From the IMG/VR virus record IMGVR_UViG_3300011862_000001, positions 32,001 to 96,000 of that record: DNA of 64,000 bases; one strand, 5' to 3'. This DNA comes from a virus (taxonomy: Duplodnaviria > Caudoviricetes). The notes under the pieces are model-generated. The model was not told the DNA's origin, made no database searches, and worked only from the letters and a program-made list of their open reading frames with translations. Below, piece after piece: positions 20,101-23,972 of this stretch (within the stretch, counting starts at the first letter, position 1; each line of letters opens with the position of its first letter). The position numbers and the translations under genes are program-made.

Positions 20101-20128
20101 GGGGAGCTTCGGCTCCCTGTTTTTTTTT
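20101..20128 (+). terminator. Intrinsic terminator
   Basis: GGGAGC-TTCG-GCTCCC followed by a T run. Confidence 0.8.
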
Positions 20129-20349
20129 GTTTCAACCCGCATCACTGCTCATTTTTTGACCACTTTCTGTACACATTTTAACCAGTGAAAATAAGCAGCC
20201 AAAACGCGCTTTACAGCGGTCGTAACCGAACCCGGTACACTTGGGTTCCTTTCCCTAAATAACGTCTCCTGGGTACCGCTGCGTTCGAATTTGACGGTGT
20301 CCCGACCCCGACTTGCGACCCCCTCGTCATCGACTGGCGACCGCCACGC

Positions 20350-20780
20350 CGATCAAACGTTGGGTACCGCTTCGCGGAACTGGGGATCTAAAACAGGGAA
20401 ATCTTGACAAACGAATCTTCGTGAGTTTGTCTGATTTGGTTGTTTTTTAACCAATAACCCCTAGCCAGCCTCCAGCTGGCTTAATTTACCCTTTTAAAAA
20501 TTTTCTTTTTAAAAAACAAAGACTTACAACCGATCTTACCCCTCCCCTCAGGGGGAGGGTAAAAAACTCTTCTATTAGTCGCGTGCGCGTGCGCACGCCA
20601 TTTCCTACAGGATCTTTTAAAAGAATTATATTATTATAATTATATATATCCCGTAGGGATATAATTATAAATATAAATATATATAACTCTTCGAGTTTAA
20701 ATATACTAACGCGCGTGATCCTTATTAAGAGATCGGATCTCGGATCGGCAGGTTGACCACCCCGATCGGGGGGGGGGGAA
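20350..20780. other. Candidate replication origin or other cis-acting region
   Basis: Non-coding; very AT-rich core at 20613-20710 with an inverted repeat; nine GATC sites, several palindromes and a G11 run. Confidence 0.35.
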
Positions 20781-20782
20781 GT

Positions 20783-20811
20783 CCAATTACAGGTTTACCC
20801 AGTAGTATGCT
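20783..20811 (+). promoter_or_regulatory. Class-2 promoter, duplicate of the promoter upstream of tRNA-Trp
   Basis: CCAATTACAGGTTTACCCAGTAGTATGCT matches 21951-21979 at 25 of 29 positions. Confidence 0.65.
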
Positions 20812-21070
20812 CGAAGGCACATGCACCACGTTGCCATCATCCAATCTCCCGGTTGACATCGGGCCGGGAGACTTTTTCGAGTCCGACTCACGCAGGGTGA
20901 GACGCGCTTACTGGCCAGTTGTGGTACAGGACCCGCAGTGCTGATCCCGCTGCGGGGATTTTTTCCCCAGGCGCTCATCCTGTTCAGGAATTGCTGTGTG
21001 TAGTTCGCCCCGTTCCTACCGGGGCGCTTTTTCGAGAGTCTTCCCCGAGGGTTGTCGACAAAGCGAAAAA
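20809..21070 (+). ncRNA. Putative structured non-coding RNA A
   Basis: Starts at the TATG of a class-2 promoter; no credible ORF; consecutive hairpins (CTCGAAGG/TTTTCGAG, TCTCCCGG/CCGGGAGA, CTCAC/GTGAG, CGCCCCG/CGGGGCG). Confidence 0.45.
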
Positions 21071-21109
21071 CCGTTCAGCCTAACACTCAACGTGATTTTG
21101 TTTTAGTAT

Positions 21110-21410
21110 GTCCAGAGATTCAGGTTCCCGCCGGGCTTTCACCCCGGTCGGTACCGCGGTAGCCTCAGGGGCGTTCTGCCCCGCCGGACCGTCATCCGTC
21201 GCCATGGCCATGAACTTACGCGTGGCCCACGTCGGTTGGATGCTCCTGAGGCGCGACCGAATTCGGCGTTGCGTCGAAACGTTCCCTGCGTGGAGACACC
21301 GCAGGGGTGGGATTGTCCCGAAGGGGGTGATTGGTTGTTTATCTTGGCGGCTCGGAAAGACGAGAGGGGGATGCCTGCACGCTGTGAAGCAGTTCGGGCA
21401 CCGCTGTCGA
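21110..21410 (+). ncRNA. Putative structured non-coding RNA B
   Basis: Starts at AGTATG (21105-21110); GC-rich; long-range pairing GGTCG..GCCTCAGG / CCTGAGGC..CGACC and a CCCTGCG/CGCAGGG hairpin; ends at the next promoter. Confidence 0.45.
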
Positions 21411-21412
21411 TA

Positions 21413-21439
21413 TTTTTTACAGATTCCCCAGTTCATGTG
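21413..21439 (+). promoter_or_regulatory. Class-2 promoter
   Basis: TTTTTTACAGATTCCCCAGTTCATGTG; same spacing as, and similar spacer to, 20783 and 21951. Confidence 0.6.
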
Positions 21440-21464
21440 TTCAAACCCAGCGAGGAATTTCAGC

Positions 21465-21965
21465 GTGACCACGATTGCATTCGACGGTAATACTCTGGCG
21501 GCGGACAGCCAGACAACCCAAGAGAACATTCGCCTCTCGAACTCTGCGGTAAAAATCTTCACCCGCGTCGCGCAGTCTGATGACTGGGCAATCGAGGGGA
21601 AACGCATCACCGCGTTTGGGGTGGCGGGTAACCTACACGCAGCCAACGATTTGCGCAGAGCGATGGAAACGTTTGCTGGCCACAAAGCCGGTGACCCGTT
21701 CGCCAAAGGCATCACCTTCGCGTTCATCGCGATTGCTGAAGACCGTACCGTGTTTGTTGGCGGGAAGTATTCTGACGATGACCGTTCGTGGGTCGTCGAA
21801 GCACAGGCACCGGTTGCTGTTGGTAGCGGTGGGGATTTCGCCATGGGTGCCATGGCCGCTGGGGCTACAGCCGAACAGGCTGTGGAGATTGCTGCTCGGT
21901 TCGATGTGAATACCGGCGGCCTTGTCCAGGCGATTAACCTCGCCAAAAGCCCAATTACAGATTAA
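21465..21965 (+). CDS. HslV/proteasome beta-type Ntn peptidase
   Basis: GTG start after GAGGA gives M-TTIAFDGNTLAADSQ...K-IF...VGSGG..AMGAM...AARFD..TGG, the N-terminal-Thr protease pattern. Confidence 0.85.
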   Translation: MTTIAFDGNTLAADSQTTQENIRLSNSAVKIFTRVAQSDDWAIEGKRITAFGVAGNLHAANDLRRAMETFAGHKAGDPFAKGITFAFIAIAEDRTVFVGGKYSDDDRSWVVEAQAPVAVGSGGDFAMGAMAAGATAEQAVEIAARFDVNTGGLVQAINLAKSPITD

Positions 21966-21979
21966 CCCAGTGCTATGCT
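21951..21979 (+). promoter_or_regulatory. Class-2 promoter of the tRNA cluster
   Basis: CCAATTAC-N15-TATG, about 37 nt upstream of tRNA-Trp. Confidence 0.65.
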
Positions 21980-22013: not shown

Positions 22014-22089
22014 AGGGAAGTAGCTCAGCAGGCAGAGCGCTGATCTCCAAAATCAGATGCCACAGGTTCGATTCCTGTCTTCCCTGCCA
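22014..22089 (+). tRNA. trnW: tRNA-Trp (CCA)
   Basis: 76-nt cloverleaf: AGGGAAG/CTTCCCT acceptor, CTGAT-CTCCAAA-ATCAG anticodon arm, GGTTCGATTCC T arm, encoded CCA. Confidence 0.95.
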
Positions 22090-22675: not shown

Positions 22676-23318
22676 AATACACCAACAGGAATATTTCGAT
22701 ATTCGTGTTGAAGCTGACTGTCACTTGCTCACAAGTGTATACCCATAGGCGTCGGGGCTGGTATCCCCGCTGCCACGGTAATAGCGAAGACCTATCGCAT
22801 ACCCCTAAGTCGATAGTAGCCGGTTACACAAAAGACCACCCTAGGGTGGGTAGCTGACCGTGAACAAACTTACTCGATAACTTAAGAGAGTTGTTATATG
22901 CAAGGATGGAGAGTAGCACTGGGGGAAATGATGGCGACCTTACGCTATTTCATTGCCCACGCGCACCTCTGGTCACTTGCCCATTATCGGCTTACAGGCG
23001 GTGGGAGTTCCCGTGAGGGTTCCCGACACAGACAACTTCCTGCGTGGAACTATTTGTCCGTATCGGACAGGCCAGCACCGGACTGCTAATCCGTCTCGCT
23101 AACGCCTGTAATACTACAATCTGAAATCTGATTGGGATTAAGTTCCCAGAAGTGAACGGGTGGCAGACGCCACCGTAGGCGCGGTACCTCATACGGCCGG
23201 TACGCCGCAAAAGCAAGACGGATAGGGGATGGTGCTTGGAGAGGTTCAGACCAGCGTATCGTTGGCTCAACTGAAGAAGTCCATCATCCCCGTTTCCTAC
23301 AACGTATGTGAGGCGTGT

Positions 23319-23875: not shown

Positions 23876-23972
23876 GAACGATGAAGTTAGAGGCATAAAC
23901 ACCCGACTCATAATCGGACAGCGGTTTACCTGGCAGGTACTCCTTCGCAGTTTCGAATCCTGTCATCGTTCG
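23876..23972 (+). pseudogene. Degenerate tRNA-like element with CAT anticodon and a long variable region
   Basis: GAACGATG/CATCGTTC acceptor-like stem, CCGA-CTCATAA-TCGG arm and TTCGAATCC T loop; T-stem mismatch; no CCA. Confidence 0.55.

Follow-up and report, generated by a model that had tools for sequence, protein, structure and literature searches.

We analysed a window of 64,000 nucleotides that spans bases 32001-96000 of a virus record; the record is 236,909 bases long and carries terminal repeats. Positions below are window positions unless stated otherwise. The closest database relatives of this phage (~75% identity) are the Erwinia Machinaviruses ChrisDB, Caitlin and pEa_SNUABM_4/8/9, and farther relatives are the Salmonella SPN3US group (Seoulvirus) and the Erskineviruses Asesino and phiEaH2. 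Both SPN3US and Asesino have been demonstrated experimentally to build a phage nucleus (PMC13282480), which bears out, for these relatives, the description of the window phage as nucleus-forming.

The element under study, RNA A, lies within a ~1.3-kb non-coding region (about 20120-21464), the largest in the genome, in which the starts or ends of many database records fall. The region is bounded by a terminated upstream gene and by a small gene labelled HslV-family in the record of phage SPAsTU. Pfam returned no match for this small gene or for the upstream ORF, so the 'HslV-like' label is that of the SPAsTU record alone. GTG 21465, 8 nt past GAGGAA, is a likelier start for the small protease-like gene than 21108; the first part (21108-21464) of the 285-codon ORF at 21108-21965 is probably a false 5' extension over a second RNA, RNA B, and Pfam matches neither part of the ORF. 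The upstream half of the non-coding region (20383-20740) is conserved too; it contains hairpins that covary, such as 20541-20566, and an AT-rich block that has a palindrome at its centre. Directly 5' of RNA A, at 20760-20782, a GATC palindrome leads into a run of eleven G that is unique to the window phage; relatives carry an A-rich stretch there. In the Erwinia phage Wellington, a putative HNH endonuclease gene (962-1471 of locus L030) stands directly 5' of the RNA B core, in the place that RNA A occupies in other phages. Elsewhere in the window, the Rfam tRNA model scores 32.8 bits over the 95 nt at 23877-23971, where ARAGORN makes no call; this may be a long-arm tRNA, an interrupted tRNA or a tRNA-like element. 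The features discussed below are collected in Table 1.

Table 1 Features of the RNA A locus and related sites (window positions unless stated otherwise)
Feature	Position	Strand	Details
Promoter-like site P_A	20783-20811	+	TTAC 20787-20790, TATG 20806-20809, predicted +1 G20809
5' hairpin P1	20813-20838	+	Predicted fold; helix 1 of the consensus; 5 phages compared: one pair changed in a compensatory way (AU/CG), several G-U changes
Terminator-like module T1	20845-20877	+	10-bp hairpin 20845-20871, U-run 20873-20877; predicted RNA ~69 nt; terminator scan
Central hairpins	20878-20931	+	Local 20879-20909 plus 20911-20929, or long-range stem 20893-20901 with 20974-20982
Terminator-like module T2	20932-20964	+	9-bp hairpin 20932-20956, U-run 20959-20964; predicted RNA ~156 nt; terminator scan
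Invariant single-stranded motif UGCUGUGU	20992-20999	+	Immediately 5' of the last hairpin; left unpaired by the consensus fold
Terminator-like module T3	21006-21032	+	7-bp hairpin 21006-21026, U-run 21028-21032; predicted full-length RNA A ~224 nt; terminator scan
Clade-wide structured stretch beyond RNA A	21032-21107	+	Hairpin Px 21032-21058; CYUAACAC hairpin, stem 21060-21104, loop ~21079-21086
Third, looser promoter subfamily member (TGTG variant)	21417-21439	+	26 nt 5' of GTG start 21465 of the small protease-like gene
Second 29-mer copy	21951-21979	+	5' of tRNA-Trp (22014-22089); TATG 21974-21977, predicted +1 G21977
AT-rich motif copies	18555, 25595, 87508, 137524, 179013, 181545	-	Window numbering; the last four are genome 119508-213545, beyond the window
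'Hypothetical proteins' annotated over RNA A/RNA B in relatives	L001 3462-3680, 4037-4261; L024 1899-2719; L032 1153-1974; L027 1927-2370; L028 1262-1740		Records of ChrisDB, Huxley, Parshik, Asesino and phiEaH2

At its 5' end, the locus carries a 29-mer, P_A, that is identical at 25 of 29 positions to a second copy in front of tRNA-Trp, as the preliminary description had noticed. A degenerate pattern spanning both 29-mers has exactly 2 matches in the window against 0 in 100 shuffles, and the same pattern finds exactly those 2 sites across the whole genome. A weaker likeness of the two copies goes on to about +15 of the predicted transcripts (10/15). The tRNA-proximal copy overlaps the stop codon of the gene upstream of it. 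Both copies are positionally kept in relatives, which also carry sites equivalent to the looser member in front of the small protease-like gene.

The two copies belong to a broader class defined by a fixed spacing. The pattern TTAC-N15-T(A/G)TG occurs at 34 genome sites, compared with 8-16 at other spacings (10-14 and 16-20). Eleven of the 34 TRTG-form sites and 7 of the 16 TATG-form sites are intergenic in a genome that is 6.5% intergenic. Almost all of the eleven lie on the + strand, and most precede a + strand ORF by 24-78 nt. The rule extends to relatives: TTTAC-N15-TRTG yields 23 forward sites in SPN3US, 19 in ChrisDB and 17 in Asesino, compared with 0-3 for a reversed-pattern control. 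In the window, the class has four members, with +1 at 20809, 21439 and 21977 and, for a TAAC variant, at 22900; a candidate +1 at 21110 lacks the class spacing. The fixed-spacing motif and its location before genes support the earlier proposal that the 29-mer at 20783-20811 is a promoter, and we consider this very likely. A sigma-70 reading of the same 29-mer was rejected: the hexamer spacing is too short, and a sigma-70 scan gave no site there.

For the start site, we rely on the likeness to phage phiKZ, whose middle and late promoters carry AAanTTACc near -24 and T-3 A T G+1, respectively (Yakunina et al. 2015, PMC4666361); the same layout, in which the middle element has TTAC near -24 and the G of the late TATG is the first transcribed base, is also given in PMC7598289. 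The class described here shares the TTAC 15 nt 5' of TATG and coding-strand sites before genes, and the final G is its predicted start; in P_A, TTAC lies at -22 to -19 relative to the predicted +1. Unlike the phiKZ promoters, it has rigid spacing and a common TGTG variant, and the two copies at this locus share much beyond the class consensus (25/29). By this analogy we accept G20809 as the inferred transcription start, and by the same analogy the class would be used by the phage's own polymerase.

RNA A had been described as driven by a copy of the tRNA-operon promoter and as co-regulated with the tRNAs. A near-identical promoter is indeed common to the RNA A site and the tRNA-Trp leader. The direction of copying is probably the reverse. 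The tRNA-proximal 29-mer is absent from SPN3US, SPAsTU and pEa_SNUABM_29 and confined to the window's subgroup, whereas the promoter at the RNA A site is found clade-wide; the tRNA promoter is therefore more likely the copy and the RNA A promoter the older of the two.

Two further observations concern transcription signals elsewhere in the genome. Some gene-end terminators run directly into the next promoter (window-numbered 1671-1697, 120915-120949 and 191995; genome 33671, 152915 and 223995), so that the terminator T-run doubles as the T-rich stretch 5' of TTAC. Separately, the genome has six - strand copies of a ~30-nt AT-rich motif (CACCTARGT-like, an alternating A/T run, CTGAAA); this is a likely candidate consensus for the phage's early promoters, those used by the virion polymerase. 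When the AT-rich block upstream of P_A was searched by k-mers, it yielded no rightward copy of this leftward motif, and no promoter of either class was recognised within 20383-20740.

What follows P_A is neither a recognisable tRNA nor a known RNA family, as the preliminary description had supposed for tRNAs. Neither ARAGORN nor the Rfam tRNA model finds a cloverleaf in 20783-21107. In a wider search of 20400-21465, ARAGORN and the Rfam covariance models, whose use that description had proposed, gave no match at E<=1, and at the same threshold Rfam found nothing besides tRNAs in five homologous loci.

The absence of a credible ORF was likewise borne out by comparison. Stop-free stretches of 36-89 codons exist on both strands in the window, and the record of one relative, ChrisDB, annotates a 72-codon ORF here (gp287), so we considered that the region might encode one or more small proteins. 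No reading frame, however, stays open across the five phages with the window-type RNA A: stop-free stretches change frame from phage to phage, and the indels among the five are not multiples of three. Most relative records annotate nothing over RNA A, and the 11-codon ORF that follows the predicted +1 in the window phage shrinks to 2 codons in ChrisDB. A protein-coding role is thus scarcely credible, and gp287 is probably spurious. The 'hypothetical proteins' placed over RNA A and RNA B in other records (Table 1) are ORFs that are not conserved and overlap covarying hairpins; these too are probably mis-annotations.

The transcript predicted from P_A would be structured. Folding of 20809-21070 gave a z-score of -3.3 relative to shuffles on the + strand (1 of 200) and -1.8 on the - strand. 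A consensus fold of the five phages consists of a 5' hairpin, T1, a central domain with T2, T3 and then two more hairpins. With five sequences of the window-type form, from which the structure itself was derived, 96% of cells are paired under this consensus, compared with 36-45% when partners are slid by 1-3 columns, and 4 pairs (7 cells) have changed on both sides; none of 500 shuffles matches the observed double-change cell count, paired percentage or covariation score, in a test whose power is low because only these five sequences carry the form. Compensatory changes in the four close relatives agree with the expectation of covarying structure among homologues. They include two pairs in T1 and, in T2, one pair of three types (UA/AU/GC) plus G-U changes, and an equivalent of the 5' hairpin covaries in the Seoulvirus/Erskinevirus set. 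The two folds available to the central hairpins are mutually exclusive and both are built on invariant bases (helix 4 never varies), so the comparison cannot pick between them. Overall, the comparison supports a non-coding stretch with hairpins conserved through compensatory changes.

One pairing proposed earlier did not hold. Two complementary 8-mers had been read as a closing stem beginning at the predicted +1; they are complementary in sequence, but their pairing is absent from the minimum-energy and consensus folds and from the wider family and shows no compensatory change, and we rejected it.

The same features bear on whether the conserved hairpins act in RNA or in DNA. A DNA-level element (a transcription-activated replication origin, a packaging site or a protein-binding array, with the hairpins as cruciforms or binding sites and the promoter opening the DNA) would suit a position in the genome's largest non-coding region, where many database records start or end and where an AT-rich, palindrome-rich block lies just upstream (20580-20720). 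Against this, the pairing depends on G-U pairs, as suits a + strand RNA, and each of these would become a C-A mismatch in the opposite strand; the hairpins have trailing U-runs on the + strand alone; and the AT-rich block lies upstream rather than downstream of the promoter. Cumulative GC skew also has no turning point near genome position 52.8 kb, a weak test in a genome whose genes lie mostly on one strand. We regard a DNA-level element as very improbable.

The run of consecutive hairpins reported earlier is present and more stable than shuffles, and it resolves into three terminator-like modules, T1, T2 and T3, which end 69, 156 and 224 nt after the predicted +1 with no conserved ORF between. 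To place these modules in context, consider the genome-wide census of + strand hairpins followed by at least five T: of 27 such sites, 25 are intergenic, nearly all of them 1-56 nt past a stop codon, and this combination is taken to be a working terminator signal in the genome. Most of these sites have tetraloops and T-runs of 6-10. T1-T3 are three intergenic exceptions, with 7-nt loops, T-runs of 5-6 and a distance of 778-933 nt from the nearest ORF end. Their long loops and short T-runs suggest weak intrinsic terminators. An equivalent of T1 (a hairpin plus U4-5) stands at the matching place in six distant relatives, and a U-run is retained after each hairpin in all lineages. For T2 and T3, a resemblance to CRISPR repeats, judged by eye, was dropped as it is not kept in relatives.

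Comparison across the clade also moves the 3' boundary. The interval first reported ended at 21070, which does not correspond to a natural boundary: its last 40 bases belong to a more widely conserved structure (21032-21107), and on comparative grounds the natural 3' end of RNA A is T3, at about 21032. The T3 position is occupied by a hairpin in 15 phages; its stems vary widely among them and the 10-11-nt tail that comes next is the same in all, and the stems of Px and of the CYUAACAC-loop hairpin show compensatory changes across 12-15 phages. Because pairing is kept with quite different stem sequences, all three are RNA structures.

This structured stretch continues into RNA B and lies upstream of a TATG at 21107-21110 that is lacking before RNA B in the Huxley-type phages. 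Some transcripts must therefore pass T3, and with conserved structure just beyond it, termination at T3 would be at most partial. The read-through would come from P_A or, in Seoulvirus, from a second promoter, P2. The U-run of T3, flanked by two conserved helices, could also be a structural linker rather than a stop.

Beyond the closest relatives, RNA A diverges rapidly in sequence. A BLAST search with 20740-21130 recovered the middle part (20815-21020) from no more than four distinct relatives; synteny, the order of parts and short motifs, rather than alignable sequence, are therefore what defines the wider family. The IMG/VR scans for homologues returned only Caitlin and ChrisDB, plus one unrelated contig; 11 loci from a metagenome scan with a 21-nt degenerate promoter pattern were all unrelated chance matches and were discarded. 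The same order of parts is found at the same site in SPN3US, Salmonella phage 1252, SPAsTU, pEa_SNUABM_29, Asesino and phiEaH2. In these Seoulvirus/Erskinevirus forms, TTAC-N15-TGTG is followed by a 5' part made of a short conserved motif and a hairpin, then by a long hairpin that bears U4-5, by small hairpins and UGCUGUGU, and last by a terminal hairpin whose U-run is U6-9.

The 8-nt motif UGCUGUGU is invariant: it is identical in 11 phages of three genera while its flanks diverge, and it sits 3-9 nt before the terminal hairpin. That hairpin has 6 distinct stem sequences in the 11 phages, a diversity that does not depend on the method; its paired state does, as MAFFT could not register the terminal hairpins of the wide set and each was therefore folded singly, making 'paired' true by construction.

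In Seoulvirus/Erskinevirus, the terminal U-run, a U6-9 terminator, abuts P2 (TTAC-N15-TATG), which makes the unit clearly a separate gene there. P2 starts a 70-nt leader that leads to another hairpin; this has a conserved tail, whose first bases are CUUUUUCGA. The window-type phages lack the P2 unit, and their RNA A terminal hairpin is joined directly to the CUUUUUCGA-type tail; a deletion between the two U-runs would explain this loss. Huxley, Parshik, pEa_SNUABM_43 and pEa_SNUABM_6 have a promoter, 25 nt, a single hairpin and the tail, without T1, T2 or UGCUGUGU. These Huxley-type Machinaviruses have thus lost nearly all of RNA A, which is dispensable in them. The comparison portrays RNA A as an old, fast-evolving, modular unit, dispensable in at least the Huxley-type subgroup.

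These arrangements weigh on whether RNA A and RNA B could be one long structured RNA of about 610 nt, in which hairpins and U-runs are architectural and do not terminate transcription. Conservation is indeed continuous between P_A and about 21420, Px takes in the bases that directly follow the T3 U-run, and the Huxley-type arrangement is compatible with such a molecule. RNA B, however, is intact in phages that lack the T1-T2 part, a U-run follows every hairpin in every lineage despite differing stems, and Seoulvirus has a promoter between the two RNAs. A single long RNA is, in our judgement, quite unlikely.

We instead favour, with little more than even confidence, a promoter-proximal small RNA gene with leaky termination whose product would act in trans. 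The phage's own multisubunit RNA polymerase would start at G20809, from a promoter of the TTAC-N15-T(A/G)TG class, transcribe the 5' hairpin and then meet the three weak intrinsic terminators. A partial stop at each would leave nested RNAs of ~69, 156 and 224 nt with a common 5' end, and the remaining polymerases would continue into the downstream structured RNA: Px, the CYUAACAC hairpin and RNA B. Full-length RNA A would be the counterpart of the discrete promoter-to-terminator RNA gene in Seoulvirus/Erskinevirus. The single-stranded UGCUGUGU, which adjoins the terminal hairpin and U-tail, is its likely functional part, as a pairing seed or protein-binding site, in which case RNA A would act in trans. 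A literature search found no transcript data for any phage of the SPN3US-like clade.

The principal competitor places the function in cis. Here RNA A would be a leader only, its modules serving as conditional terminators that meter the flow from P_A to RNA B, the small protease-like gene and the tRNAs, with the short RNAs as functionless by-products. Such a leader requires read-through, which must occur at T3 given the conserved RNA structure between T3 and the next TATG, and in the Huxley-type phages, with no TATG before RNA B, P_A is the only promoter upstream, 25 nt before the single hairpin. There is also a precedent in phiKZ, with two read-through modes at 81% of its 5'UTR terminators (PMC10914365). 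The distant relatives are difficult to reconcile with this role: in Seoulvirus/Erskinevirus a strong terminator closes RNA A and P2, directly beyond it, serves RNA B, so RNA A cannot be the leader of RNA B there and is conserved nonetheless. The invariant UGCUGUGU moreover has no evident part in termination. We therefore think a purely cis-acting leader unlikely.

A more specific version of trans action can be sketched, and we offer it tentatively, as improbable in its detail. RNA A would be made in the phage nucleus and exported to the cytoplasm, where CA-rich sites in host or phage mRNAs would be the pairing partners of the GU-rich UGCUGUGU, or the motif would titrate away an RNA-binding protein of the host. 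The phage genome contains no 10-mer complement of UGCUGUGU and a single 9-mer match, inside an other-strand ORF; the best complementarity of RNA A to the phage genome is a 13-mer, at about chance level, in a non-conserved part. If the trans-acting reading is true, RNA A would be the first defined riboregulator family of nucleus-forming phages, and the nested terminators would set the dose of three isoforms.

Transcription and translation are kept apart in nucleus-forming jumbo phages. The RNA A locus offers a comparative handle on promoter-proximal RNA in such a phage, combining a promoter class, three graded terminators and an 8-nt invariant motif. Cultivable Erwinia and Salmonella phages carry natural variants (full, two-unit and near-deletion forms), so the function of RNA A is directly testable. 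For SPN3US-like phages, which have no published transcription map, the analysis also provides a census of terminators and a practical rule for promoters, TTAC-N15-T(A/G)TG, and it suggests that several database 'hypothetical proteins' across the RNA A/RNA B region are spurious.

RNA A can be compared first with its neighbour. RNA B, like RNA A, is non-coding and absent from Rfam; the two are adjacent on the same strand and probably fed at least in part by the same promoter. RNA B is conserved in sequence clade-wide, whereas in RNA A only the architecture and two short motifs are constant, the number of modules differs and one subgroup has lost the RNA. A second likeness is to RNAs C and D of phage T4, small stable non-coding RNAs that lie beside tRNA genes, are expressed with the tRNAs and are processed from a tRNA precursor. 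RNA A resembles them as a small non-coding RNA encoded near phage tRNA genes; unlike them, it has its own predicted promoter and terminators, ~1 kb 5' of the first tRNA, rather than being cut from a tRNA precursor.

Hosts of the clade (Salmonella, Erwinia, E. coli) possess Hfq/ProQ-type chaperones, and RNA A resembles enterobacterial sRNAs of the Hfq or ProQ type in that a short, conserved and unpaired motif immediately precedes a GC-rich terminal hairpin ending in a U-tail. It differs from them in that the U-tail of the window form has only 5 residues and that UGCUGUGU has no target in the phage genome.

The closest documented parallel is phiKZ, which makes many short promoter-proximal RNAs. 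Its promoter-proximal terminators stop >90% of transcripts prematurely and yield RNAs of 71 nt and 141 nt, which northern blots confirmed (Putzeys et al. 2024, PMC10914365). In common with these 5'UTR-derived ncRNA candidates, RNA A belongs to a nucleus-forming jumbo phage with its own RNA polymerases, has a phage promoter and a hairpin/U-run terminator within 250 nt, and is predicted to be a short structured RNA sharing its 5' end with a read-through transcript. The two have no sequence or Rfam relation; RNA A has three stacked terminators where the phiKZ ncRNAs have one, and another non-coding RNA downstream where phiKZ has a protein gene. The phiKZ RNAs have been seen by ONT-cappable-seq and northern blot (PMC10914365), whereas RNA A is predicted from sequence. 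We thus consider RNA A a candidate new family of a kind already documented in phiKZ.
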